Shown: piece by piece, positions 3,744-39,748 of the stretch
Layout: every line of letters begins with the position of its first letter
Numbering within the stretch: position 1 is the stretch's first letter
IMG/VR virus record: IMGVR_UViG_3300003465_000010
Span: 1-50,545 of that record
Source: a virus
Taxonomy: Duplodnaviria > Caudoviricetes
Direction: 5' to 3' (one strand)
Length of the DNA stretch: 50,545 nt
Translations under genes and position numbers: made by a program
Notes under the pieces: model-generated
What the model saw: only the letters and a program-made list of their open reading frames with translations
Database searches by the model: none
Told to the model about the DNA's origin: nothing

Positions 3744-4088
3744 TTACTTCCTTTCTAAGTTGCGGAGACATTCTATGACACGTTCGTGAGATTGTGTCGC
3801 CTTGTCCAGCATTCTAGTGTTGTTGTCGAGAGCGGTGCGGCAACTATCCGCAACGTGCTGAGTTTGCACCGCTAATTGTACCACCTGTTCGTTCTTTGCG
3901 TCCGACTTCTCTTGGAGTTTCTCCTGGCGTTTAAGGAAGTAGACGGTGAGTCCGCCGAGGACCACCATTAACATGACGGCAGTGTAAATCATAATGTAAC
4001 GATCCGACTTACCGTCAAGGTGCTTGGCGATTTCGTTGCCAACCTGGATTGCGATGGCTTCTGGCGTCATGTTGGTAGAGGTGTTCAT
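3744..4088 (-). CDS. Membrane protein, holin or i-spanin-like
   Basis: One TM segment (YIMIYTAVMLMVVLGGLTVYFL) followed by a coiled coil; adjacent to the lipoprotein. Confidence 0.55.
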   Translation of the reverse strand: MNTSTNMTPEAIAIQVGNEIAKHLDGKSDRYIMIYTAVMLMVVLGGLTVYFLKRQEKLQEKSDAKNEQVVQLAVQTQHVADSCRTALDNNTRMLDKATQSHERVIECLRNLERK

Positions 4089-4432
4089 TTCTCTGTTATG
4101 CGAAAGTATTTCGGACCAGAGAGACGAATGTATTGGGTAACGGTGTTGGACGATTCGGATTCGATACCGTTGGCGTCGACGTGAGTGGCGAAGTACAGAA
4201 CGTTCCCTCCGCCTTTGGGTGCGGGGAGGTTGACGTACCAGAGCTTTGTGGTGCTGACAGTGCCAGCAAAGATGATTTCGTTAGTGGCAAAGGTTCGACG
4301 AAGTGAGCCGTTTTCGTATATCCTCGTTGGGTAGACTTCCTCGGATTCCCAGGTAAGTGTCATGTTCGCACGCTCGGTGATGGGCGCGGCGAGGACGGTG
4401 AGGAGAGTGAGGGAAATTAACAGTTTCTTCAT
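4085..4432 (-). CDS. Signal-peptide protein with fibronectin-III-like beta fold
   Basis: Probable start MKKLLISLTLLTVLAA at 4432 (ATGA overlap with the upstream stop); TLTW...YFATHVDANGIESESSN pattern. Confidence 0.6.
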   Translation of the reverse strand: MKKLLISLTLLTVLAAPITERANMTLTWESEEVYPTRIYENGSLRRTFATNEIIFAGTVSTTKLWYVNLPAPKGGGNVLYFATHVDANGIESESSNTVTQYIRLSGPKYFRITEK

Positions 4433-5241: not shown

Positions 5242-6627
5242 CTAGTAGGTCATCACCGGGTCCAAGTAATAAGTGCCCGCTTTTCGAAAGATGGCCCGCC
5301 ACTTTATCTCGCTGGCTTCCGCCGGAGTGAAAGGACCAACCTGTAGTTTCTGTTTGACCGGAGTCGTCAGCCCCGTCCAAGTGTCGGTGTCACTCGCCAA
5401 CGCGCTCCCAGCCCCGTAGGGATCGCTGTTTCGGCTGGTGATCAAAGTCGCTTTGGGCGTGCTCGCATCAGAGCGATACACCACTTCGAGTTCCGCTTCG
5501 GTATCGGTGAGGTTGGACGCTCCGCTGGCTTGCGCGATCTTCACAACCCCGGTGCTCGCGCTCGTGCGCGTGTCGTATCCGTTGCTCCCCCATTCCAGAT
5601 TAAATGGGTTGAATTTGTTGCAGTCCGAGGACGCGACGACTTCGATGCTGATGTTCTGGCCGCTCGAATTTCCGAACTTGGTCGCGCTGGTCGAATTGTA
5701 AACCGAACTGGACGCCATCGCGGTCCCGGCCCGAGTCGCCTTGCCCCACATCCAATAGGTGTCCGCCGAATCGACGTTCTCCCAGACGATCTCCATCGAA
5801 TCGTTCGGCCATGTGCCAGTGATCCACGTCGGCGTTGCGTCTCGTTTGCAGCCTGAGATGAAGATATAACTCCCGCGCATGTTCACCACGTTGAAGTAAG
5901 CGCCGCCGCTCTTTTCGTAGCCGGACAGATCGCTGGCGATGATCTCGACATCAAAATCGCCTTCTGAGGCAAGACCAGAAAAAAGATTGTTTGGTTTGGT
6001 CGCACCAGCGTATTCAAAAGAAACTCCGATCATTCTCACCTTGGTATTCTGATATGTGATCGCTGAAGCTGTGGAGTTCTGTATTCGCAGAACAGTGTTG
6101 CGAAATTCAATGAACGTGAACGCCTGGCCTGATGCGGCCCCTGGACCTAAAAACAGACTTAAAGTGCCACCAGACCCTTGCGTGCCGACCGTGCAATCCT
6201 CGAAGATGGCAGATTGATTGATATTCGCGGAAGTCGCAGAGCAAATGGATATAAGGTTTGAAGATGAATTCCCGTTGTGCCCCACTAAGAGGACGCCTTT
6301 GTAGTGAAGTGTTTGGCTTCCCGCCGTTGCAACCCGCAATGAAAAGCCGTTTGTGCCCGGTGTTTCTTGCGCGCCCTTTGCGTAGACCCCGGTTGTTCGA
6401 TTGCGTGACTCAATAAAAATTTTCGCTCCCGAAGCGGCGTTGTGAACGATGTTTGCCGACGCCGGTGAGAAGTTGTGCGTGTGCGAACAGATGATCGTGT
6501 CTCCATCCACCGCGACCGCAAGAGCCCCGGCGATGGATTGATACGTCGCCTGCGACCCGTTCCACCAAGTCACGCTCGGCGGCGTCGCGTCGTTTCCATC
6601 TGCGCTGTCAACGTAAAGCGTAGCCAT
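5242..6627 (-). CDS. Putative tailspike / beta-helix virion protein
   Basis: MATLYVDSADGND...SIAGALAVAVDGDTII N-terminus typical of right-handed beta-helix proteins. Confidence 0.6.
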   Translation of the reverse strand: MATLYVDSADGNDATPPSVTWWNGSQATYQSIAGALAVAVDGDTIICSHTHNFSPASANIVHNAASGAKIFIESRNRTTGVYAKGAQETPGTNGFSLRVATAGSQTLHYKGVLLVGHNGNSSSNLISICSATSANINQSAIFEDCTVGTQGSGGTLSLFLGPGAASGQAFTFIEFRNTVLRIQNSTASAITYQNTKVRMIGVSFEYAGATKPNNLFSGLASEGDFDVEIIASDLSGYEKSGGAYFNVVNMRGSYIFISGCKRDATPTWITGTWPNDSMEIVWENVDSADTYWMWGKATRAGTAMASSSVYNSTSATKFGNSSGQNISIEVVASSDCNKFNPFNLEWGSNGYDTRTSASTGVVKIAQASGASNLTDTEAELEVVYRSDASTPKATLITSRNSDPYGAGSALASDTDTWTGLTTPVKQKLQVGPFTPAEASEIKWRAIFRKAGTYYLDPVMTY

Positions 6628-13624: not shown

Positions 13625-13717
13625 CTTGTTTCACTGACTCCTCGTAATGCCTCCGAACGGTATCCGTCACGGGGATCGTTGTGGGGAGGGAGCCGTCGAG
13701 AACCTCAAGAAGAAACG

Positions 13718-13890
13718 ACCCCTTTTCCTTCCGGTCATCGGGTCCTAGTTCATCCATCGGGGATCACCCTATCAACCCTCCGGCCAAAGACGACCCTTAT
13801 CTTAGGGTCGAGAGACTATCGGGTCTTCCCGCAGAAGGGTCATCGGGGATTTGACCCCTTTCTCCAAGGGTCCTAAGCCAAAAGGGTCTT
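13718..13890. repeat. Cluster of short (AA)GGGTC/GACCC repeats
   Basis: About 9 copies in both orientations in non-coding DNA upstream of terS. Confidence 0.6.
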
Positions 13891-14054
13891 TAGTTTTTTC
13901 TCACCTGGGAAAGTTTAAATTCCGAAACCACGTGGAGCGGGGATATAGCTAATGTTCATCCCCTCGCGGGGAAGGTATCCCCGCCTTGATAACCTCGTAA
14001 TCTCCGGGCGAAGCCCGCTAATTCCCCCGTCCGGAGCGAAGCGTGAGGACCGGC

Positions 14055-14087
14055 AAAAATTGCCCACCCCGAACTAACGGAGTGGGC
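14055..14087 (-). terminator. Intrinsic terminator of the 14105-14455 gene
   Basis: GCCCACTCCG-ttagtt-CGGGGTGGGC stem followed by aaTTTTT on the minus strand. Confidence 0.75.
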
Positions 14088-14104: not shown

Positions 14105-14455
14105 TCAAAGACCAGCGATGAGGGACGCGGCTTTGTTGCTGCGCTTGTTGGTCTCCGCCGGGGGCGTGATCACCTTATGTGTAACCATCGTCTGCCGGAG
14201 AGCGGAGGGGTTGGTGAGCAGATGCGCGCCAATCTCAAACTCCGCATCAGCGGCGTCATACAGCGGCGTCTTATCCGGCGCGTCGTCTTCGTCGATTGTA
14301 ACGAGGGCGTCGTGATAGGCCTTCGCCATCGCGAGCAGAACGGCGTCAGAATCCGCTTGCAGCCAATTTGATTTGCCGTTCATTTGCAGCCGGGCGGTCA
14401 TGGCGACCTTCCTTGCGCCTGAGAGCTGCGCTTTGATGTCTTCGATTTTGAGCAT
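14105..14455 (-). CDS. Hypothetical early protein (stand-alone transcription unit)
   Basis: 116 aa with its own promoter and terminator. Confidence 0.75.
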   Translation of the reverse strand: MLKIEDIKAQLSGARKVAMTARLQMNGKSNWLQADSDAVLLAMAKAYHDALVTIDEDDAPDKTPLYDAADAEFEIGAHLLTNPSALRQTMVTHKVITPPAETNKRSNKAASLIAGL

Positions 14456-14479
14456 ATATGATTCTATCCTATCGGCTGC

Positions 14480-14497
14480 TTTCGCGTTCTTGCGAAG
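14480..14497. promoter_or_regulatory. Palindromic operator (downstream of P1)
   Basis: TTTCGC-gttctt-GCGAAG. Confidence 0.6.
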
Positions 14498-14518
14498 ATG
14501 TCAGCCATCAGCACAAAG

Positions 14519-14535
14519 AGCTAGAATCATGCCAG
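14519..14535 (-). promoter_or_regulatory. sigma54-type promoter P1
   Basis: CTGGCATGATTCTAGCT: GG-N10-GC, -24/-12 consensus; 63 nt upstream of the 14455 start. Confidence 0.65.
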
Positions 14536-14542
14536 GATAACC

Positions 14543-14560
14543 TTTCGCATTTTTGCGAAA
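14543..14560. promoter_or_regulatory. Palindromic operator (upstream of P1)
   Basis: TTTCGC-attttt-GCGAAA, 7 nt from the promoter element. Confidence 0.7.
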
Positions 14561-14574
14561 GCCTCCGAAAGCCA

Positions 14575-14982
14575 AGGGTCCACCTCGCTAGGTGAATCAT
14601 AGACATTCTGGAGATTCCTTGGTTCATATTAGCCTCTAATATCCGCATCCGCTCATGCGTCCGTGCATTCGTGCGTGCGTTCCCCTCCCACCCTCTCTGC
14701 CGGAATAAGGGTCAAAGGGTCATTGCGATATTCTCACAAAGCCATTGCCTATATACCAGCGTAGAGACCCTCCTCTGTGTGTATATAATTTTTTTGATTT
14801 CCAATACTACTTTAGTTGGTATGGTTAGGGAGATTGGATTACACCGGGATAGAGGCAATGACCCATATTCCCGGATCGCCAGAGGCCGGGATCATAGCGC
14901 ACGTTGACACGCACGCACGTATGGGATGAAGGGTCATAAAGCACAAGGGTCATTGGGTCGAAGGGAATAAGGGTCATTGGGA
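14575..14982. repeat. AAGGGTC(AT) repeats and large imperfect inverted repeat around an AT-rich core (origin/packaging candidate)
   Basis: About 9 GGGTC/GACCC copies; CGTGCGTGCGT 14670-14680 vs ACGCACGCACG 14909-14919; AT-rich core about 14780-14815. Confidence 0.55.
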
Positions 14983-14988
14983 AATTCC

Positions 14989-15007
14989 GTGAGCATTAGA
15001 GAATAAT
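14989..15007 (-). promoter_or_regulatory. ATTA-N-CTAAT-GCTCAC motif copy
   Basis: Minus strand ATTATtctCTAATGCTCAC. Confidence 0.5.
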
Positions 15008-15128
15008 AGGGACCGGCGCACAAGGGAGCGTACCCGGCCCCTTGTCGCGTGAAGGGATCGAACGGGCCGAAGGCAGAGTTGACGCCTTGGAGGCCCAGGT
15101 TGTAGTATTCCATCGGCTCGTTCGCAAG

Positions 15129-15146
15129 TTTCTCAACCCTGAGAAT
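15129..15146. promoter_or_regulatory. Palindromic operator (upstream of P2)
   Basis: TTTCTC-aaccct-GAGAAT, 6 nt from the promoter element. Confidence 0.65.
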
Positions 15147-15152
15147 GGAGGA

Positions 15153-15169
15153 TTGGCATGGGATTTGCT
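15153..15169 (+). promoter_or_regulatory. sigma54-type promoter P2
   Basis: TTGGCATGGGATTTGCT, near-consensus YTGGCACG-N4-TTGCW, upstream of the first rightward gene. Confidence 0.75.
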
Positions 15170-15181
15170 GGAGTCAGGGAG

Positions 15182-15199
15182 ATTCGCGATGATGCGAAT
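15182..15199. promoter_or_regulatory. Palindromic operator (downstream of P2)
   Basis: ATTCGC-gatgat-GCGAAT. Confidence 0.7.
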
Positions 15200-15224
15200 T
15201 TAGTTTAGTGGGAAGGATGAACTT

Positions 15225-15485
15225 ATGGTATTAAAGATCGAGTATACAACAGATTCCAAAGGATACTCTTTGGTTTCGGACTTAGACATCAACATCGAGC
15301 CCGATGCAGAGGCGGTTGGGTATGCTGCGGCCATGTTTGCATCATGTGCTGCGTTGTTTGAAACACTGATGAACAAGGCCGATCCGAAGTATAGGGAGAG
15401 GTTAATGCACGGCTTCAACAAAGGTCTCTCCGAGGCGCGGCAGAACGAAATCTGGCCGTTTGATTCATTCATGGTGAAGAACTAA
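15225..15485 (+). CDS. Hypothetical early protein
   Basis: 86 aa, GGAAGGA upstream. Confidence 0.7.
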   Translation: MVLKIEYTTDSKGYSLVSDLDINIEPDAEAVGYAAAMFASCAALFETLMNKADPKYRERLMHGFNKGLSEARQNEIWPFDSFMVKN

Positions 15486-15514
15486 CCACCCATCAGCGGC
15501 ATCTCTCCACCGCT

Positions 15515-15785
15515 GATGCGATGGTTGGTTAAACAATGGAAGGATATTATGATCACAAAAAACGACCTAGAAACGCAGTATAGGAAAGGGGTTATCACCG
15601 CCACCGAGAAGGAGATTAAGTTCCTCGTCTTGGACGGGCTGATTTCGCAACAACGCGCGAATGAGTTGTATGAGGTTCTCGTGCAAGAATACGCTCCGCG
15701 GGAATACACTAACGAGCTATTCGCTCGCATTTCCAAACTCGCACAGGAGGGTTTGGATGCGATGGTTGGTTAAACAATGGAAGGA
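15515..15785 (+). repeat. 30-bp direct repeat (15515-15544 and 15756-15785)
   Basis: GATGCGATGGTTGGTTAAACAATGGAAGGA twice, each just before a start codon. Confidence 0.9.
15549..15773 (+). CDS. Hypothetical early protein
   Basis: MITKNDLETQ..., start after GGAAGGA. Confidence 0.7.
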   Translation: MITKNDLETQYRKGVITATEKEIKFLVLDGLISQQRANELYEVLVQEYAPREYTNELFARISKLAQEGLDAMVG

Positions 15786-15790
15786 ATGAT

Positions 15791-16042
15791 ATGAACACGA
15801 AAGTAACAAACGTCCACGTTCGAGAATTCGGCACCATTCAAGTCTCCTGGGAGGTTTCCGACACCCTCAAAGGCTTCTCGCATCGCCTGAGATGCGGTGA
15901 ACTCTACAGTGCTTGGTGCTGTTACGAACACCTAACCACCCTTCAAGTCGGCAAGCGAACATTCGCAGCAGGAACGCAGTATTGGTTGGGTTTTCTGCCG
16001 GTGGAAGAACCCTTCGAGATCGTAACAGGGAGGGAAGTGTGA
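15791..16042 (+). CDS. Hypothetical early protein
   Basis: 83 aa after the second repeat copy. Confidence 0.65.
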   Translation: MNTKVTNVHVREFGTIQVSWEVSDTLKGFSHRLRCGELYSAWCCYEHLTTLQVGKRTFAAGTQYWLGFLPVEEPFEIVTGREV

Positions 16043-16335
16043 ACGAAGAAAACAAACCGGCGGAGCGAAGCTCCGATGTTGCCTCTAACGAGGTTGACGC
16101 TTTTGAATGTTCGGATTGTCAAACAACACACCACGGAACTAAAGGTGTTTGTCCTGGTGCTGAACCTCACGATGTTGAGCGCGAACAAAGGATGGCTGAT
16201 GTCACGGCACCTGAATTCGTTGAAATCCAAATACGTTCAGATGAGAAGGTTGTTTGGGTGAACGTTGATGGCCGTTGCTTGTTTCGTGCCTGTCGTATTG
16301 GTAAGTTGATTATTAACGACGAGAGGGTTAAGTGA
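16039..16335 (+). CDS. Hypothetical protein
   Basis: GTGA coupling at both ends; CxxC...H...C. Confidence 0.6.
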   Translation: MNEENKPAERSSDVASNEVDAFECSDCQTTHHGTKGVCPGAEPHDVEREQRMADVTAPEFVEIQIRSDEKVVWVNVDGRCLFRACRIGKLIINDERVK

Positions 16336-16703
16336 ACATCTCCATCACCGAACACCGCTCCGCTCTCTGCCTTACCTTCGAGTGTCGCACCGGCACATTG
16401 CCATCCGTGGTTAAAGCACAACTCCTCGCGTGTTTTCTCTCCCACAACCTGAAAGACGTTGACGGGCCGCGTATTCTCACCAGAATGACTTCACCCGAAT
16501 ACGATACTAAGTCACCAACATCCAACTTCGTTTTCTTTCGAAGGAACGTGGCGGTGAGAGAATGGCCGTTCCCCTACGAAGACTACATCTACGCCACCGA
16601 ACTCGCACTCGAAAACCACTGCGAGATCGTCCGTTGCAACTTTATTATTCACTTACCTGAACCCGGAGAACCCTTTAAAGATTATGTCAACCCGCACAAG
16701 TAA
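16332..16703 (+). CDS. Hypothetical protein
   Basis: 123 aa coupled ORF. Confidence 0.6.
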   Translation: MNISITEHRSALCLTFECRTGTLPSVVKAQLLACFLSHNLKDVDGPRILTRMTSPEYDTKSPTSNFVFFRRNVAVREWPFPYEDYIYATELALENHCEIVRCNFIIHLPEPGEPFKDYVNPHK

Positions 16704-16797
16704 ACACATCTGCCTAGTCCTCGCCTTCGGCCTATTAGGCTGGTTGGTGATGATCACCCTTGTCTTTCTATTCACCACCGCGGAGAGTTTGTTATGA
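16684..16797 (+). CDS. Small single-TM protein (37 aa)
   Basis: MSTRTSKHICLVLAFGLLGWLVMITLVFLFTTAESLL; ATGA coupling to the next gene. Confidence 0.5.
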   Translation: MSTRTSKHICLVLAFGLLGWLVMITLVFLFTTAESLL

Positions 16798-17066
16798 GCA
16801 CCAACAACTCCCCGGTGCCGCAAAGCGGCCAAGTTTGTGAACACGTGCAACCAATCACCAACGGCCATCGAAACAACTTTCGTCTTTCATTCGACGAAGT
16901 TTGGCTTGACGGCAAGAGAGTCTACGTTGGTATCGACACGAAAGTCTTCGAACGATGGCTTGACTGGTGTAAGATAAGCAAACCTCACGTTCTCACCCTC
17001 ACACTCAACGACCAGCTCTGCGTCTTAGCTGGGCTGCGTGATGAAAATTCTCAACCTTGCGAATAA
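16794..17066 (+). CDS. Hypothetical protein
   Basis: 90 aa coupled ORF. Confidence 0.6.
   Translation: MSTNNSPVPQSGQVCEHVQPITNGHRNNFRLSFDEVWLDGKRVYVGIDTKVFERWLDWCKISKPHVLTLTLNDQLCVLAGLRDENSQPCE
17047..17064. promoter_or_regulatory. Palindromic operator (upstream of P3)
   Basis: ATTCTC-aacctt-GCGAAT, 6 nt from the promoter element. Confidence 0.65.
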
Positions 17067-17070
17067 AATC

Positions 17071-17087
17071 CTGGCATGCTTCCTGCT
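17071..17087 (+). promoter_or_regulatory. sigma54-type promoter P3
   Basis: CTGGCATGCTTCCTGCT, GG-N10-GC, in an intergenic gap. Confidence 0.7.
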
Positions 17088-17098
17088 TCTCAGGAGGT

Positions 17099-17116
17099 CC
17101 TCGCATGAATGCGAAA
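17099..17116. promoter_or_regulatory. Palindromic operator (downstream of P3)
   Basis: CCTCGC-atgaat-GCGAAA, overlapping the 17105 ATG. Confidence 0.55.
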
Positions 17117-17500
17117 AAACAACCCAGACCACCGGGACGATTACTCCCGATCGTGAGTGAGCCCGAGTCTCTCCCACGATCCTCGCTCGTTCCCCTCTAC
17201 TCCTCGATTATAGACTTCTTCGAGTGTAACAACATCACCGTTGGCCGTAATGAGGAGTGGAGACTAACAGAGCGCCTCCACGGCGAGATTCAAGGTCTCC
17301 CCGGCTCCCGTGGCTTCCTAACCGCCACCAACGGCATCCTCTGCTACGTCGAACAGCACTCCCGCCTATTCCTCGGCCACCTTCACTGGTTCGTGACAGA
17401 CAAAAATGAGCGTATTCACTTCAATCGTGAGACAAAAACGATTGAAGTCAAAACGACAAGAACATCAAAAATGACCGAAATGGTGAAAGACCTACTATGA
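17105..17500 (+). CDS. Hypothetical protein
   Basis: MNAKKQPR...MVKDLL; AGGAGG upstream. Confidence 0.65.
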   Translation: MNAKKQPRPPGRLLPIVSEPESLPRSSLVPLYSSIIDFFECNNITVGRNEEWRLTERLHGEIQGLPGSRGFLTATNGILCYVEQHSRLFLGHLHWFVTDKNERIHFNRETKTIEVKTTRTSKMTEMVKDLL

Positions 17501-19432: not shown

Positions 19433-19699
19433 ATGGCAACTTTTTCCTTCAAAGGCAAACCCGACCAGCGTTGTAAGGGACAATCCTCCCTCTACGACCA
19501 CCTCCTCATCCTCGGCCCACTCACCGACCCCAAAATTGAACAATACGAGCTGGAGGGGAAGTATGGACCGGAGAGACAAAAAGCTGCAATCGAACGTCGC
19601 AAACTAGTCGAGGCGCAACAGAAGGTCCGGGAACAGAAAGCGAAGGCACGTGCAAAGACCGCCGAGTATCGTGCCGCAATGGTGAAAGACCTCCTATGA
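19433..19699 (+). CDS. Hypothetical basic coiled-coil protein
   Basis: MATFSFKGK...MVKDLL. Confidence 0.7.
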   Translation: MATFSFKGKPDQRCKGQSSLYDHLLILGPLTDPKIEQYELEGKYGPERQKAAIERRKLVEAQQKVREQKAKARAKTAEYRAAMVKDLL

Positions 19700-19917
19700 C
19701 CCTTGAAGACTCCTTTAACAAACAACTCCGTGAACAAATGTCGAAGAAGGACATTAAACCAAAAGAGTTGGCCGCAGCACTCAACGTCCCTGTCGGTGTC
19801 GTCTACATGGCGATGAAACGTTCTGGTTTTCATACCGCCTGGTCGATGGTGAGGTATGCGCGGGCAGTGGGATGTAGGGTGGAGGTGAAGTTGGTTCCGG
19901 AAAAGGAGAACAAATGA
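19696..19917 (+). CDS. XRE/Cro-like HTH transcriptional regulator
   Basis: QLREQMSKKDIKPKELAAALNVPVGVVY...YARAVGCRVEVKLVP. Confidence 0.75.
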   Translation: MTLEDSFNKQLREQMSKKDIKPKELAAALNVPVGVVYMAMKRSGFHTAWSMVRYARAVGCRVEVKLVPEKENK

Positions 19918-33066: not shown

Positions 33067-34359
33067 ATGTCTTTCCTACGTAATTACCTAACCTACAACT
33101 CCGGCAATGAATGCCCACCCGAATATCACCTCTGGTCAGCTCTCGTCATACTTGCAAACGTCGTTTCGCGGCGGGTGTATCTTGACATGGAGTATTTTCA
33201 AATCACTCCGAACTTATACGTTACGTTGGTGGGCTCCCAAGGGAACCGGAAGACGGTGGCTAAGGACATTGCCTACGACATGCTTAGAGAAGTATGTCCT
33301 TCCATACCCGTCTCAGCCGAGTCAGAGTCCAAAGAGGCTATCACTAAGTACATGGCAGCGCCTGAACAAAATCGAAGTTACACTGACCCTCTCACTAACG
33401 AAAACATCGAATACCGTCCCTACGGTATCTTCGCCACAGAACTCAAAAACTTCCTCTCCATCAACCAGGTAGTGATGGTTGACTTCCTCACCACGATCTA
33501 TGACAGAAAATTCTACGACGTCAAGACGAAGAATAAAGGCACGGACGTTATCAAGAATCCGTGCGTTAACTTCTTGGCCTGCGAAACACCTGAATGGATT
33601 ATTGCCAGACTTAAGGACTCTGTTATTTCTGGTGGTTTTTGTCGTCGGATGGTGTTTGTTTATTCGAATTCTCCACGAAAGCGCATTGCGTTTCCGAAAA
33701 TCACAGACGAACAACGAGCAGCTTTTGAAGCCTGTAAGAACCAACTAAGGAAGATTAAGGACATCGCCGGGAAGGTCAAATTCGACGACGAAGCGAAGAC
33801 GTTCTACGAAAACTGGTACAATAACCTAAAATTCCCCGACGACCCGTTCATGAAGGGCTGGATGGAGTCGAAGCACATCCAGATGTTGAAGGTGGCAATC
33901 CTCATCATGGTGTCGGAGATGGAGGAACCGGACCACACAAAGCTGATATTGAAAAAATCCCACATCGAAGACGCTCTCGCGTGCATCGACGAAGGGGTAG
34001 AGAAGAACCTGGGGAAACTAGGCGAATCCGTTGGCAGAAACGAAATGGCCTTGCCGACGAACAAAATCCTAGAGTTAGTGAAGGAAAAGGGCGGAGCCGT
34101 GCCCGAGAAGGATATTCAACACCTAATGATGCGTGACCTGAGCGGGATGGAGTTCTTGGCCGCCGTTCACGCGCTGGTGGGTATGGAGAAGTTAGTTAAG
34201 ATAAAGCTCGCCGACCCACGTACTAACGTCGTGCGCCACTGGCTCTTAACCCCAGAGAAAGCACAAGCCTTTAAAAACGCTACCAACCAAGTTATCACTC
34301 CAACTCCCGCGAAGGACGCAACTGCTTCATCACCATCATCCTCGCCTGCTGGTAAGTAA
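33067..34359 (+). CDS. DUF3987/YfjI-like AAA+ helicase-type ATPase
   Basis: ECPPEYHLWS, PNLYVTLVGSQGNRKT, NPCVNFLACETP, GGFCRRMVFV. Confidence 0.75.
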   Translation: MSFLRNYLTYNSGNECPPEYHLWSALVILANVVSRRVYLDMEYFQITPNLYVTLVGSQGNRKTVAKDIAYDMLREVCPSIPVSAESESKEAITKYMAAPEQNRSYTDPLTNENIEYRPYGIFATELKNFLSINQVVMVDFLTTIYDRKFYDVKTKNKGTDVIKNPCVNFLACETPEWIIARLKDSVISGGFCRRMVFVYSNSPRKRIAFPKITDEQRAAFEACKNQLRKIKDIAGKVKFDDEAKTFYENWYNNLKFPDDPFMKGWMESKHIQMLKVAILIMVSEMEEPDHTKLILKKSHIEDALACIDEGVEKNLGKLGESVGRNEMALPTNKILELVKEKGGAVPEKDIQHLMMRDLSGMEFLAAVHALVGMEKLVKIKLADPRTNVVRHWLLTPEKAQAFKNATNQVITPTPAKDATASSPSSSPAGK

Positions 34360-37300
34360 GACTCGGATTCATCGCTCTCAACCTATCAACCATAACCGCC
34401 AATGTCAACTCCTGATTCGACACAACCCCCGCACCGGGAATACCTAAACTTCTTTCAACTACTTTCCGCTCTTGAAGCCGTCTCAACTCAGGTTTCTGCG
34501 GAGCCTGCGTATAAGTCGCTGCTAGACTTGCTCTATCATCAACACCGACTTTGCGACCACTACGGTACAAGTCAGCTGGCTCAGTCATGTTCTGAACTAA
34601 CTCAGCGACTCTTCGCACTCCGCTCCGAGCATCGTAACCTTCAAGCTCGTGTTGCATCGCAATTAGGTCTCTACGCACGCCAAGCGTATCTCCAGTCAGT
34701 AGACGCTCAGCTAGGTCACGGTGGAAGCGATTCAGCCGGTCGCCTTGAATCTGTTCCGAACGCTTCAGGATCGACTGTTGTTCGTAATACTGCGATAACC
34801 TCTTGGGAGAGAATCCAGCAACTCGTGCCAAAGTCTCAGAAGCTGTTGGATCAAACACAAGATTACCTAAACGATCTTTCACTTGCCAATTATTCGTGGC
34901 AAGATCAACGAGACCTCGGAGACCGGTTGGAGAAACTCTGCGAGCTGCTGACTCAAATTCACCCTTTGACGCGTCAGACACAGCTTTCGTCCAGTTAGCC
35001 GCCATGTTCGCCGCAGGACCAAACACATTTTGCCATGAAAACCCATCGTAAGAATTCATCCCGAAAACGTTCCCGAGTTGGAACCTTGCTCCAACATCCG
35101 CCGGACCGAGATTCAACACCCCATGCAACGACGCATCCGCCATCATCCCCCCTAGCTGTTCGTCTTGACCTGCAAGAGACGCTATTGCTTCCCGTAACTC
35201 TTTACGAACTTCGGCTTCTGGAAACAGTTGTTCGACTAGTGCGATGGCAGTCGCAGCAAACGGAAGGCCAAGGGCTCCTCCAAGGACAACTTGCGTACCA
35301 AGCATTAAGCCCACTGCACGACGCGCTGCAGAACGTTCTGTATCCGAAAGGCCAGAACGCCCAATCGCCTCCTTCGCCAACCTCCCCATATAAGCAATAG
35401 TGTTGAACGTATATGAACTCAACGCATACATCAATCCCCCTACGCCTTGAGCCCTTCCCATGTAAGAAAATACAAGAGGACGAGCAGCAGTTCCTCCAGT
35501 ATATGCTGTTGATCGGACGGCATCTTTCGCGAACGAATATGATTCGTCCTTTGACTTCCCGCGAGCTAAGGCAAATTCAAACGCACTTAAAAAGGCTGAC
35601 CGAGTTACTAAATGTGCTGGCACGGAATAGAACTGCCGAGCTAGCTTCATTAACCAATACCCAGGCTTCTTGGCAGTCTCCAGAGAGTTTACAAACTCAT
35701 TACCACGAGAAAGGTTCCGAAGGTTGATGGTATTCACATCCTCCGTCATGGTAATCTCCTGCACGAATCCCTGGTCAACCACCCCTTCATTCGCCGCCCT
35801 TTTCAACGCCTCCGCCAGCACCGGCTCCTCCTTTTCCAGGTTCACCTTATCAAACGCATACTTCGCTGCCTTTGACATGGCCTTTGCCGTAAGCTGATAC
35901 GCCTCCTTCATCGACGCACCCTCTCGAACCAAATACGGCACATGAGCTACAGCAAGCTGCGTAGGTTCCGTAAACCACGTCGCTGGACTCAGTCCCATAT
36001 ACTGAAAGAACACCAAACTCTTTAACGCTTGAAACTCCTTCCCACCCGGCGTGATGATGTTGTTCAAATACTGACGCGCTGCGTTCTGGATGTTCGGGTT
36101 CGCCCGCATTTCCGGTGTATGCAGTCTTATCGCTGCTTCCGCGCGGATGAACTGTTTCGCCAGCCCAAGAGACGTACTATCTATATAGTGCATCATACCG
36201 GCCATCATGTTGAGGTCTTCGCGTCCACCTACCAGGTTTCTTTCCTGCATCGACGGTGGCGTAATCATCCTCCACGCACCCTCCCCTGGCATGAACATGT
36301 CTTTCATGAACGCGATCTCCTCCGGTGAGAGATTATCCATCGACGCTAACATCTTCTCATATGCAACCTTATCCATCTCCGCATACCGCTGAAGTAAATC
36401 CGGGTCAAAGTTCTGCGCCATGTTCTGACGATCGCGCTTATCCCATTTCTTTGGTTCGATACCTCGGGCACGAAGTTTTTGTAGATACTGTAAGGCTTCC
36501 TTCTCAGTGTAAAACCCTTTCACAAAAGGGCGTTTTCCCTCTCTCCACCCAAGAAAGTAATCGCCGAGGCGTACCTCAGTCGTCCACCACGGCTTGCCTG
36601 TTCCATCAGGTCCCAACAATTTCAGTTTCACCTCCTCCAACTTCGGCTTCATGGAGTTGCTGAAGTCTACCAGGTCGGCAAGCACCGCAATCGGCAACTG
36701 CTGCACCGCTGGACTAATGGGTCCGTTTTCAAACGTATGCACATAAACCTGCTCGGCCAACTTCTTTGCGCCGTTTATATCCATCTTTTGTGTAGGACCC
36801 AACTTCTGCACCAGCTTCATGGCGATTGTGGACTTTATCTTGTCCACTTCGCCTGAGAGTCGGGCAATGGCAGCCCGGACGGATGTTTGAGAGATGGCCG
36901 ACAGCCCACGCTTTAGTAGGGCTTGGTTATCAGCCGATAAATGCCCCGCATACTGCGCGAACTCCTCCGCATCCAAAAACCTCTGCACCTCATTCTGCGC
37001 CAACAAAATCTCCGACAACGGTCTCTGGATCACCGACTTTGGGTCAGTCAACTGCCGCACAAACTCCTCATCCAGCTTCCCCGAACCGTCCAGTTTAAAA
37101 AACGGCTCCCACAGCTTCTTCGCAATCTCCGTTGCATGGTTCTGGAATCCTGTCCCTAGGTCAAACACCGGACCCATTATTGGGAAGTCCTTCACCAACT
37201 GTCCCATTGGCTTAATATAGTCCAACCAACCAAGCCTGAGCCCTGACTCCTTCTCCCACGTGCTCGGCTCAAACATCATCTCATACCCCTTCTTCACCAA

Positions 37301-39748
37301 CTCCTTAAATTCAGGGAAGTTTTGAGTCTCCGGCACACCGTGTTTATCATACCCTTTCCACATAAGAAGGTCCGCTGCAGCGTATACCTTCTTAATATCC
37401 TCATACGAAATTGGGGGAGAATAGGGCGTCCGTTCTAAATTCGCTGCCACCATCGACAGATATTGTTTCGCCGTATCCGCCGCCAACCTCTCCTTCATTA
37501 ACGACGATACATTCTTCAACGCCTCCGTCATCGGCGCAGCGTGCTTCCTTTTCGTTGCCTCATCGCCATGCCAGAGAGCGTCGAGTAGAGTCTCGTTCCC
37601 GTGTAAAACAGCCCCAATATCCGTATACATCTGGAACATGAAATCCTGCACCCTTGGCTCGGAGAACCGGAGCATCTCAAGAATGTTCTTGAAGGACTTC
37701 TCTCCCGCTGGTGAACTCGCGCCCATCGCCAGCAATCCACTCACATCCCCCATAAACTCCCTCACTCCAGCCTCCCCGTCCGCATAAACCTTCCCTCTCC
37801 GCTCATACATCATCTCGATCGCTGGTAGGTCAGCCGCTCCTACTCCCTTCACCGACGGAGTCGAAACAACCACCTTCGGGAAGACCGCAGCATGAAGTGT
37901 GGTGAAAACATCCTGCAACTCCTGCGGACTGTAACCTTTGAAGGTCTGGTACGCATCCGCATACACCTTATTCGCCCTCGGATCACCCGCTCCAATCTTC
38001 ACATCCTGTCCCCAAGCATGTGTCAACTCATGCCCTACCACCCACAACGTATGAGCCATATCCCTCGCCGTGAGGTCGAAGGACCTGTTCTGCGCCAACA
38101 CCACCATCTTTCCGTCCGGACTTTCGGTGAGAGGAATGAAGAAATTCACATCCTGATCCTTCCCCCTCACCACCTTCACATCAAACTGCCCTAACGCCAC
38201 CGCCATCTTTGTTGCGATGTTGGAAAGACGGTCAATGCCAGCAGGGTCGTATCCTCGCTGTTCGTAGAGACTCTTGAAGAAGGTTGTGACACCCTTCACC
38301 GTCGAGAAGTTATTCGGACGCTGAAACTCCGGCTGACCTAGTGCTTGACCCACATCCTCCAGCACCGCACGCTTCGCTGCCTCTCTCGCAATGTCAACGT
38401 CCGAAACCTCCGGCATTTTCTGACTGAGCTCAACAACCTTCGTCAGCTGCTCATCGGTCGCACCAAGATCGGAAAGTTTATTCAAAACCTTCGACAGGTA
38501 TTCACTGTTTGGTGCAGTTTCGAGGGGAGGTTTCACAACCATGTTCTGCGTTGCCGGAGTCTTATCCGTCTGCGCCAACGCAAACTTCCCATTCAACCCC
38601 TGCATCACCAGTCCCCTTTTCGACAACTCCTGCATCACAGTCGTCGCCTGCGAAAACGGTATTCCCAACTTCTTCGACAATGGCGCCGGATTCACTGGCA
38701 TTCCTGCCTTAAAGTGCACATACGCTTCATTCGCCAACTCCTCGATGGGTTTTAGCGACACCACAAGCTCCGGTGTCGGATCAGGTACCGCCTCCTCCAC
38801 CTTTTTCGTGGTAACCTCCTCCGTCTTCACCTCATTCTCCTTCGCCCGTAATGGTTCGACCACCTCGTCGATACTCACCGACAAGTCCACTACGGCCCGA
38901 CGTGCATCTTCAACATTCAGCCAATCACCGCGGGAAGCGATAGGCGTCTCGGTCCCCCGTGCGAGGTCCACCAAGTTGGCCGCTTCGGGACCTTTGGAAG
39001 TTAGTTTATACCCCTTAGCCAACATCGGGGCATCGAATGGTAGAAAAGCCAAACCACCCGCGATGTTAGCTACCACGTTCTCCTTGGTAAACGGATTTTG
39101 GAGACCCTGCCCTTGTACAAGGGACGAAAGCTGATTACCCACCTCAATCGGCACCTGCGCACCCACTTGCGCCCCAGCATACTCCACTCCCCTCTGCGCC
39201 AACGGCGAAAGTCCTTTCTTCGCCATGTCTTTGGTGACATACTTTGCCGCAGCCTTGACACCGAGATTAGCCGCACCCGGCACGAGACCAGTCGACAACC
39301 CACTAATAGCCCCTACAGCCGGACTCCCTGTCTCCGTATACCCCTTAGCACCGGCAGACAATATCCCGGCCAACGCAGCGCCTAAACCTATCGGTCCGCC
39401 AGCAGCCGTCCCAGCAGCCACGGCTCCAATCTCTCCACCCATTCGTGGAATAGCCTTCCCCACATCTTCCAGCACATCCGGGAACCCAATAACCTCCCCA
39501 ACACTCCGTCCTGCCCTCCCTAACGGCTCTGAAAGTGGTGCTAAAGCCTTGTCGATTCCAGTACTCGCACGCTTGACCAACCCACCCAACTTCGTCGTAT
39601 CCCCAGCACTAAAATCATCCGTCTGTAACGTCTGATTCGCATACCTCGCAAACGACCCCAAGTCCATGTCCGCAAAAAACGGATCGGACGTCCTCGCCAG
39701 TTCGTGCGCCTTCTGTACTTGTTCGAATGATAAAGGCATATCAACCAA
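34295..39748 (-). CDS. Giant internal virion/ejection protein (polyvalent-like)
   Basis: 1817 aa, last late gene; Gly/Ala-rich N-terminal hydrophobic segments, wHTH-like segment, HELTH zincin motif. Confidence 0.8.
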   Translation of the reverse strand: MVDMPLSFEQVQKAHELARTSDPFFADMDLGSFARYANQTLQTDDFSAGDTTKLGGLVKRASTGIDKALAPLSEPLGRAGRSVGEVIGFPDVLEDVGKAIPRMGGEIGAVAAGTAAGGPIGLGAALAGILSAGAKGYTETGSPAVGAISGLSTGLVPGAANLGVKAAAKYVTKDMAKKGLSPLAQRGVEYAGAQVGAQVPIEVGNQLSSLVQGQGLQNPFTKENVVANIAGGLAFLPFDAPMLAKGYKLTSKGPEAANLVDLARGTETPIASRGDWLNVEDARRAVVDLSVSIDEVVEPLRAKENEVKTEEVTTKKVEEAVPDPTPELVVSLKPIEELANEAYVHFKAGMPVNPAPLSKKLGIPFSQATTVMQELSKRGLVMQGLNGKFALAQTDKTPATQNMVVKPPLETAPNSEYLSKVLNKLSDLGATDEQLTKVVELSQKMPEVSDVDIAREAAKRAVLEDVGQALGQPEFQRPNNFSTVKGVTTFFKSLYEQRGYDPAGIDRLSNIATKMAVALGQFDVKVVRGKDQDVNFFIPLTESPDGKMVVLAQNRSFDLTARDMAHTLWVVGHELTHAWGQDVKIGAGDPRANKVYADAYQTFKGYSPQELQDVFTTLHAAVFPKVVVSTPSVKGVGAADLPAIEMMYERRGKVYADGEAGVREFMGDVSGLLAMGASSPAGEKSFKNILEMLRFSEPRVQDFMFQMYTDIGAVLHGNETLLDALWHGDEATKRKHAAPMTEALKNVSSLMKERLAADTAKQYLSMVAANLERTPYSPPISYEDIKKVYAAADLLMWKGYDKHGVPETQNFPEFKELVKKGYEMMFEPSTWEKESGLRLGWLDYIKPMGQLVKDFPIMGPVFDLGTGFQNHATEIAKKLWEPFFKLDGSGKLDEEFVRQLTDPKSVIQRPLSEILLAQNEVQRFLDAEEFAQYAGHLSADNQALLKRGLSAISQTSVRAAIARLSGEVDKIKSTIAMKLVQKLGPTQKMDINGAKKLAEQVYVHTFENGPISPAVQQLPIAVLADLVDFSNSMKPKLEEVKLKLLGPDGTGKPWWTTEVRLGDYFLGWREGKRPFVKGFYTEKEALQYLQKLRARGIEPKKWDKRDRQNMAQNFDPDLLQRYAEMDKVAYEKMLASMDNLSPEEIAFMKDMFMPGEGAWRMITPPSMQERNLVGGREDLNMMAGMMHYIDSTSLGLAKQFIRAEAAIRLHTPEMRANPNIQNAARQYLNNIITPGGKEFQALKSLVFFQYMGLSPATWFTEPTQLAVAHVPYLVREGASMKEAYQLTAKAMSKAAKYAFDKVNLEKEEPVLAEALKRAANEGVVDQGFVQEITMTEDVNTINLRNLSRGNEFVNSLETAKKPGYWLMKLARQFYSVPAHLVTRSAFLSAFEFALARGKSKDESYSFAKDAVRSTAYTGGTAARPLVFSYMGRAQGVGGLMYALSSYTFNTIAYMGRLAKEAIGRSGLSDTERSAARRAVGLMLGTQVVLGGALGLPFAATAIALVEQLFPEAEVRKELREAIASLAGQDEQLGGMMADASLHGVLNLGPADVGARFQLGNVFGMNSYDGFSWQNVFGPAANMAANWTKAVSDASKGEFESAARRVSPTGLRGLVDLATNNWQVKDRLGNLVFDPTASETLARVAGFSPKRLSQYYEQQSILKRSEQIQGDRLNRFHRDLAERLLTGDTLGVRRDLIAMQHELEGYDARSGVRRVAELVQNMTEPADLYRSGRKVGVDDRASLAATYTQAPQKPELRRLQERKVVERSLGIPGAGVVSNQELTLAVMVDRLRAMNPSLTYQQARMMVMKQLRPSRELE
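34402..34998 (+). CDS. Candidate antisense-nested helical protein A (198 aa)
   Basis: ATG 42 nt after the DUF3987 stop; amphipathic Leu/Gln helices; host gene shifts to A-ending codons here. Confidence 0.55.
   Translation: MSTPDSTQPPHREYLNFFQLLSALEAVSTQVSAEPAYKSLLDLLYHQHRLCDHYGTSQLAQSCSELTQRLFALRSEHRNLQARVASQLGLYARQAYLQSVDAQLGHGGSDSAGRLESVPNASGSTVVRNTAITSWERIQQLVPKSQKLLDQTQDYLNDLSLANYSWQDQRDLGDRLEKLCELLTQIHPLTRQTQLSSS
35035..35400 (+). CDS. Candidate antisense-nested protein B (121 aa)
   Basis: Same frame as A, 36-nt gap, Leu/Gln-rich helical core. Confidence 0.45.
   Translation: MKTHRKNSSRKRSRVGTLLQHPPDRDSTPHATTHPPSSPLAVRLDLQETLLLPVTLYELRLLETVVRLVRWQSQQTEGQGLLQGQLAYQALSPLHDALQNVLYPKGQNAQSPPSPTSPYKQ
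35413..35727 (+). CDS. Candidate antisense-nested protein C (104 aa)
   Basis: Same frame, 12-nt gap, TATATG start context, RELRQIQTHLKRLTELLNVLARNR helix. Confidence 0.5.
   Translation: MNSTHTSIPLRLEPFPCKKIQEDEQQFLQYMLLIGRHLSRTNMIRPLTSRELRQIQTHLKRLTELLNVLARNRTAELASLTNTQASWQSPESLQTHYHEKGSEG

Follow-up and report, generated by a model that had tools for sequence, protein, structure and literature searches.

We have analysed the genome of an uncultivated phage of the class Caudoviricetes (IMG/VR record IMGVR_UViG_3300003465_000010). The window covers the whole virus record of 50,545 bp, which carries 99-bp direct terminal repeats and is a complete phage genome. Exactly three promoter elements of the sigma54 (-24/-12) type were found in it, and each of them stands between two copies of an 18-bp palindrome, WTTCKC-N6-GMGAAW, in an arrangement that is kept at all three sites. 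We tentatively read these sites as promoters for host sigma54 with flanking operators for a phage-encoded dimer, which would serve to shut them off and for which a Cro-like protein encoded at 19696-19917 is the best candidate; in our judgement the chance of this reading falls a little short of even.

Promoters of the sigma54 class stay silent until an ATPase opens them, and their control normally comes from distant enhancers. If a phage indeed keeps its early and late-direction control promoters under sigma54 and surrounds each with operators of its own, this would reveal a second, promoter-proximal layer of control over the closed complex. The arrangement would further point to a phage clade that needs host RpoN for infection, and its module of ~80 bp, composed of operator, -24/-12 core and operator, would offer a ready-made tight switch for synthetic circuits.

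Three promoter elements between paired palindromes

We have searched both strands of the window with the promoter pattern TGGCAY-N5-YWGCW and compared the outcome with 100 shuffles. Exactly three matches exist in the genome against 0.31 expected, a number reached in 0 of the 100 shuffles (Table 1). All three sites show GG-N10-GC together with the flanking blocks and fit TGGCAT-N5-(T/C)(T/A)GCT. This supports, at the level of sequence, the assignment to the sigma54 class (TGGCAT...YWGCT) that had been made in the initial annotation of this DNA. Compared with the sigma54 consensus, TGGCAC-N5-TTGCW, each of the three sites has T instead of C at -21, and promoter A has TAGC. A sigma70 reading of A, B and C was rejected, as a -10-like hexamer is absent at -12..-7; sigma70-like sites occur elsewhere in the intergenic region.

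The palindrome was searched across the window as WTTCKC-N6-GMGAAW, likewise against 100 shuffles. Five exact matches were obtained versus 0.04 expected, and none of the shuffles reached five. Four of the five lie no more than ~45 bp from a promoter element, for which simple arithmetic gives a chance of ~1e-8. When up to two mismatches are allowed, the frequency is near background (34 found versus 23 expected), so the imperfect copies at 14480 and 17099 count solely through their position. The initial annotation had listed six copies at the three promoters and had named a background frequency of the palindrome elsewhere, together with mutations that have no effect, as what would speak against them. 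All six were recovered where they had been placed, those at 14543, 15129, 15182 and 17047 being exact, and the exact form is not at background frequency, with one extra exact copy at 4088.

Table 1 Features of the window discussed in the text. Positions of palindromes relative to the predicted start are counted with the second G of the promoter element as -24.
Feature	Position	Strand	Description
Promoter A, sigma54-type	14519..14534	-	TGGCATGATTCTAGCT; predicted +1 at 14508
Promoter B, sigma54-type	15154..15169	+	TGGCATGGGATTTGCT; predicted +1 at 15180
Promoter C, sigma54-type	17072..17087	+	TGGCATGCTTCCTGCT; predicted +1 at 17098
Palindrome A-down	14480..14497		TTTCGCGTTCTTGCGAAG; 1 mismatch; +12..+29 of promoter A
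Palindrome A-up	14543..14560		TTTCGCATTTTTGCGAAA; exact; -52..-35
Palindrome B-up	15129..15146		TTTCTCAACCCTGAGAAT; exact; -51..-34
Palindrome B-down	15182..15199		ATTCGCGATGATGCGAAT; exact; +3..+20
Palindrome C-up	17047..17064		ATTCTCAACCTTGCGAAT; exact; -51..-34; in the last codons of ORF 16794-17066
Palindrome C-down	17099..17116		CCTCGCATGAATGCGAAA; 2 mismatches; +2..+19; contains the ATG at 17105
Orphan palindrome	4088..4105		TTTCTCTGTTATGCGAAA; exact; at the junction of two late ORFs; no -24/-12 element nearby
Candidate operator-binding protein, P0002	19696..19917	+	73 aa; Cro/Xre-type helix-turn-helix; predicted homodimer
P0001	14105..14455	-	116 aa; helical bundle with conserved disordered tail; pLDDT 79
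Intrinsic terminator-like hairpin	14062..14087	-	10 pairs followed by a T run; closes the promoter A unit
P0004, first gene after promoter C	17105..17500	+	131 aa; small beta-barrel; wide phage family; pLDDT 87
ORF, open reading frame; aa, amino acids; pLDDT, predicted local distance difference test.

The position of the upstream copy agrees within 1 bp across the three promoters, with its centre at -42.5/-43.5. The gap between this copy and TGGCAT is 8, 7 and 7 nt at A, B and C, respectively, rather than the 6-7 nt annotated initially. The downstream copies begin 21 (A), 12 (B) and 11 (C) nt past the element, with centres at +10.5/+11.5 for B and C and at +20.5 for A. The initial placement of these copies right behind +1 is thus correct for B and C, while at A the copy lies one helical turn further out. 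The centre-to-centre distances of 63 (A), 53 (B) and 52 (C) bp correspond to 6.0, 5.05 and 4.95 helical turns. Since the spacing at A equals 6.0 turns, the helical phase is kept there despite the odd distance. Over these 52-63 bp, the looping suggested at first is better termed a phased, cooperative bracketing of the closed complex.

Overall, the palindromes belong to one sequence family with a conserved geometry, as had been claimed, and this geometry is helically phased. B and C are paralogous modules, the upstream copies of which are identical at 15 of 18 bases including the spacer AACCYT, and A-up and A-down form a near-direct repeat, the latter being nested in a longer inverted repeat, GGCTG...CAGCC. 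Among 14 half-sites, ten are TCGC-type and four TTCTC; a compensating change is present in one of the three palindromes that bear TTCTC (B-up, a double change).

The 770-bp non-coding region 14456-15224 separates two divergent gene blocks. Promoter A would drive a single 116-aa ORF (14105-14455), the sole gene before the terminator; promoter B heads the plus-strand early and replication block; promoter C lies in a 38-bp gap before the gene at 17105. On the plus strand, small ORFans are followed by the replication genes (PD-(D/E)XK nuclease, UvrD-like helicase, ParB-methylase, ligase and a UDG-PolA fusion), and the minus strand carries the genes for an SU10-type major capsid protein, the portal, the large and small terminase, tail fibre proteins and a virion protein of 1817 aa.

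The candidate binder and the recurrence of the core in other genomes

The phage seems to bring no sigma54 machinery of its own. Six-frame searches of its genome detected neither a sigma54 DNA-binding domain nor the AAA+ domain of sigma54 activators (PF00158), and no RNA polymerase-like or sigma-like protein was detected among its proteins. The early proteins, mostly ORFans, are nearly all unnamed by Pfam and PHROGs. P0002 is the sole helix-turn-helix (HTH) protein detected in the phage. Its match to Pfam HTH_26 is weak (E 0.098); in the Atlas it has a feature score of 0.93 to Cro/C1-type clusters, and by structure it reaches template-modelling (TM) scores, normalised by query, of 0.74-0.87 to HTH_3/HTH_31/HTH_26 clusters in the ten rows shown.

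The homodimer model of P0002 scored 0.56, while the best of three controls scored 0.01; the mark applied to such scores is reached by 21 of 30 proteins solved as same-chain pairs and by 0 of 23 solved single chains. The runs agreed in at least 96% of contacts with a partner pLDDT of at least 82, and the predicted interface is formed by the C-terminal strand (residues 58-69), leaving the HTH free. The pass may reflect likeness, Cro-like dimers being solved structures. The initial annotation had named two phage proteins and a host regulator as possible binders. Its description of the 19696 protein as Cro-like is borne out by features and structure, with a predicted homodimer through the C-terminal strand, and we infer that P0002 is the best candidate for the dimer on the palindromes. 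The 14105 protein, P0001, is a helical bundle without any DNA-binding likeness and without a match found in PDB.

A host regulator has become less likely. We have scanned one genome per species in 185,579 species genomes with TTCKC-N6-GMGAA-N8-TGGCAY-N6-WGC and have obtained 102 stretches, versus a rough random expectation of ~70. They are scattered over many phyla, the recurrent ones are conserved coding sequences, and in 0 of the 102 does a second palindrome follow within 60 nt downstream.

Relatives of the phage are distant. No cultured relative was found, the best TerL match among GenBank phages having 25% identity, and the TerL searches returned 61 IMG/VR and 69 metagenome loci, none above ~57% identity over the full length. 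Proteins from closer relatives are P0005, P0009, P0133 and P0155-P0159. The core YTGGCATR-N4-NTGCT recurs in the control regions of relatives. In the complete genome G001, exactly two core hits exist, divergent and 145 bp apart; in L005, L019, L025, L029, L188, L189/L037, L210, L227 and L255 the sites are single or paired. The core promoter is absent from the complete or near-complete genomes G006, G007, G012 and G017, and pattern hits in G009 and G010 were rejected as false positives in Ala/Gly-rich coding repeats. In a quick TerL tree of 26 rows chosen from ~130 loci, promoter-bearing phages make up 11 of the 13 rows of one clade (Shimodaira-Hasegawa-like approximate likelihood ratio test support 82). 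The promoter label needs 3 changes on this tree, a number as low being seen in 0 of 500 shuffles. Since the promoters follow one TerL clade, the promoter type is an old trait of that clade.

The flanks of the core differ between the phages. Both promoters of G001 are bracketed by another motif, GGCGRAGCC, at -39..-28 and -8..+4; four copies exist in that genome versus 0.63 expected, three of them at the promoters, where a one-base-longer variant is also found. L025 and L227 carry other upstream inverted repeats. Over the relatives, upstream inverted repeats with arms of at least 7 are present at 3 of 11 sites, versus a background of 0.038 per window. A pattern in which the core is conserved and the flanks are specific to each phage is consistent with host sigma54 working with phage-specific regulators; it would also be expected if the flanks are under weak constraint in some phages.

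At promoter C, the flank overlaps a coding start. In the family to which the gene after C belongs, 4 of 151 representatives start with or contain MNAK, the reading of ATGAATGCGAAA. Two of these proteins carry additional in-frame residues ahead of it (GPR, TP), and directly after MNAK the sequences are unrelated. This suggests conservation of the right half of C-down as DNA.

As a separate observation, L012 carries two tandem sigma54-like elements 45 bp apart at 5261-5325 (+), facing the terminase genes; one of them ends in CTGCC and hence lies outside the strict pattern.

Weighing the explanations against known systems

In the scheme that we prefer, the host sigma54 RNA polymerase would read the three -24/-12 promoters, and a dimeric phage-encoded regulator would use the 18-bp palindromes as its operators on the DNA. 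The first dimer would occupy the stretch immediately 5' of the -24 element (centre -42.5/-43.5), and a second one the DNA that has to enter the polymerase upon opening (centre +10.5/+11.5, +20.5 at A). Both would lie on the same face of the helix and together bracket the closed complex. As the early protein accumulates, the promoters would be shut off in a Cro-type turn-down; repression is the likely sign of the regulator's effect. A bolder form of the idea, namely that in a clade of uncultivated phages the central control region works with host sigma54 but without any phage AAA+ activator and that a small phage dimer flanking the poised complex locks or opens it, is in our view distinctly unlikely. 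If true, a dimer switch that either locks or proximally opens the closed complex would be a form of sigma54 control undescribed in bacteria.

Several observations weigh against the operator scheme, and some of them speak for a rival at the RNA level. That host sigma54 is used at A, B and C is what we infer from the sequence alone. An early promoter that requires a host activator ATPase is awkward for a lytic phage, and no palindromic enhancer was seen at -80 to -150 of the promoters. At C the predicted start, 17098, falls 3' of the Shine-Dalgarno sequence AGGAGG (17092-17097) of the next gene, and the leader would be 7 nt long if this start is correct; promoter C may be mainly a binding site for sigma54 or a regulator, or its mRNA may be nearly leaderless. 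No homologue of P0002 was found in the five whole genomes of relatives searched. In L019 and L025, the flanking DNA is 81-93% identical, yet the core alone is kept at the promoter and the upstream repeat is not. Downstream repeats are unenriched in the relatives, with arms of at least 6 at 2 of 11 sites versus 0.12. A scan of viral contigs with the TTCGC form gave at least 120 stretches; among the 123 matches listed, to which this result applies, 11 have a correctly spaced WGC and none a downstream palindrome. Finally, the predicted transcripts would open with the hairpins of the three downstream copies, which start at +1 to +4 and have leader energies of -10.6, -12.4 and -15.8 kcal/mol (z-scores -2.26, -3.06 and -2.15), and the longer stem at A explains the 10-nt shift as well as helical phasing does. 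These last points suit the idea that the downstream palindromes are 5'-terminal stem-loops which stabilise transcripts or gate translation, the upstream copies being unrelated or acting on read-through RNA and no DNA-binding protein being involved. Provided that the starts are predicted correctly, each of the three downstream copies would give a stem-loop within ~4 nt of the 5' end, as in known stabilisers. At A the outer stem GGCUG/CAGCC holds the hairpin base at +3, B-up shows its compensated double change, and C-down holds the start codon. On the other hand, the upstream copies share the sequence family of the downstream ones and lie outside the transcripts of their own promoters, and the copy at 4088 likewise cannot fit. 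B-up and C-up fold like shuffled sequence (z-scores +0.65 and -0.49), two of the three palindromes with TTCTC lack a compensating change, a mismatch interrupts the stem of the orphan copy whichever strand is read, and no Rfam match was obtained. We consider this RNA-level explanation unlikely. The mix of TTCTC and TCGC that ignores pairing, the poor folds of B-up and C-up and the stem mismatch at 4088 favour a protein operator over a purely RNA element, although the downstream copies may additionally act as 5' hairpins.

The remaining rivals keep a protein on the palindromes or dispute the promoter class. In the case of proximal activation, a palindrome-bound dimer, of the phage or of the host, would recruit or open the sigma54 closed complex and thereby replace or position the enhancer-binding ATPase. 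In its favour, central promoters of the sigma54 type are present here although the phage lacks an AAA+ activator. The upstream site is centred at -42.5/-43.5, the same place as that of class II activators and Mor/C of phage Mu, which sit there on sigma70 promoters; both sites fall just outside the footprint of the sigma54 closed complex, about -34 to -5; and an upstream inverted repeat abutting -24 recurs in relatives at the frequency given above. To our knowledge, however, sigma54 opening needs ATP hydrolysis by an AAA+ protein in all known cases, and the 73-aa HTH protein is without such a domain. A site at +2..+20 stands in the way of the polymerase, as is typical of repression, and host genomes with this arrangement were not found in the species scan; a low probability is what we would assign to proximal activation. 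Sites of a host regulator, either a bacterial enhancer-binding protein (bEBP) or a CRP/FNR-type dimer, borrowed by the phage would account for the 5-N6-5 / 6-N6-6 layout, which is that of CRP and TyrR boxes, and enhancer-binding proteins typically have their sites in helically phased pairs. Against this stand the near-random species scan, whose hits lack a second palindrome, and the flanking repeats that differ between related phages, and we hold such borrowing to be very unlikely. It is also conceivable that the core YTGGCATR-N4-NTGCT with its flanks is the site of a clade-specific transcription factor or sigma-like protein and merely resembles -24/-12. T rather than the consensus C follows TGGCA in 14 of 14 collected sites, the usually conserved T at -14 varies, the trait follows the phage clade, the G001 motifs reach inside the normal polymerase footprint, and most early proteins are ORFans. 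However, every collected site agrees with the sigma54 consensus in its GG-N10-GC spacing and in both flanking blocks, searches of the phage revealed neither an RNA polymerase nor a sigma-like protein, the preference for T is partly a product of the search pattern and matrix, and phage YuA shows that phages use -24/-12 promoters. This explanation is therefore improbable in our estimate; if it holds, the elements would define a hitherto unknown promoter class that is specific to phages and conserved throughout a deep clade.

YuA is the precedent for sigma54-type promoters in a phage. The passage of PMC10914365 that cites Ceyssens et al. 2008 reports YuA as dependent on sigma70 and sigma54, and in its GenBank entry (NC_010116) three promoter-trap fragments are annotated 'high activity, -24/-12 consensus'. 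Like the phage studied here, YuA is virulent, has no sigma54 of its own and carries -24/-12-type promoters. Its elements, however, lie among structural genes, whereas those here are bracketed by putative operators in a central divergent control region, and YuA has 0 matches to TGGCAY-N6-WGCW. Inspection of its three fragments by eye, without inverted-repeat scoring, showed no flanking palindrome family.

The lambdoid Cro/CI modules share with this system several palindrome copies of 17-18 bp at divergent early promoters, a small HTH protein, here a candidate, with dimerisation via a C-terminal beta strand, here predicted, and an operator specificity that varies between related phages. Repeated palindromic operators of 14-18 bp at early promoters are found here as six copies at three promoters. 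Lambdoid operators overlap the sigma70 -35/-10 elements and adjoin each other, while the putative operators here flank a -24/-12 promoter at a distance of 52-63 bp and do not overlap the core. The sites of bEBPs such as NtrC, PspF and XylR resemble those here in being paired, helically phased palindromes at a sigma54 promoter. Classic bEBP enhancers, however, lie 80-150 bp or more upstream, a range in which none of the centres from -43.5 to +20.5 falls; the sites here abut -24 or lie downstream of +1, and no AAA+ protein is encoded. CRP, which PMC3900584 describes as acting on sigma54 promoters, is a dimeric HTH protein that lowers their output, but it is a single host global regulator and not a promoter-bracketing pair of phage-specific sites. 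In the main texts of the open-access literature searched, no phage system with operators flanking a -24/-12 promoter is described.

Neighbouring genes and repeats

The C-terminal tail of P0001, ...RS..ASLIA(G/D)L, is conserved in all five homologues (59-80% identity); it is disordered in the model and may be a docking peptide. P0004, the product of the first gene after promoter C, belongs to a family with 279 representatives at E 0.001 or better, and genes of this family are always among the first early genes in related phages. Its invariant residues are W52, G70, T75, G77 and H92. At E 0.001 or better, no Pfam match exists for the family (four single-member hits only, E 0.015-0.095) and no PDB match for P0004, which also has no GenBank hit and no IMG/VR locus. 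A role of this protein as a sigma54 cofactor was considered and rejected: it co-occurs with the promoters, yet both are clade traits. In G001, the first early gene (~13892 (+), equal to L004 4374 (-)) encodes a Cys-rich peptide that starts with MARCEDYPCCGHEDGGC and is probably a zinc-binding protein.

The 1817-aa virion protein (34295-39748 (-)) resembles, in its C-terminal third, the giant PLxRFG-domain proteins of Pseudomonas phages. It was also considered as an N4-like RNA polymerase, together with the idea of hairpin promoters, and this was rejected, a polymerase match or signature being absent. No matches were obtained for the window with Rfam (gathering and E-value thresholds) or in a tRNA scan.

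The terminator after ORF 14105 is separated from the small terminase gene by a 430-nt non-coding leader, 13625-14061 (-), with mini-hairpin motifs of the GCGAAGC type and no recognisable promoter. Antitermination, or a promoter that escaped recognition, may provide access to the late genes. Two clusters of AAGGGTCAT / GGGTC repeats, at 13717-13890 and 14707-14977, flank the promoter A unit, with a density of GGGTC or GACCC of 9 per 500 bp versus a genome mean of 1.07. The repeats at 14707-14723 and 14929-14977 precede the predicted starts of A and B by 199-251 bp, and the clusters could be enhancer sites, origin iterons or late-promoter elements. In the early block, a direct repeat, GATGCGATGGTTGGTTAAACAATGGAAGGA, is present at 15516-15550 and 15755-15790, 5' of two successive small ORFs; as it precedes both of them, the ribosome-binding region is duplicated.

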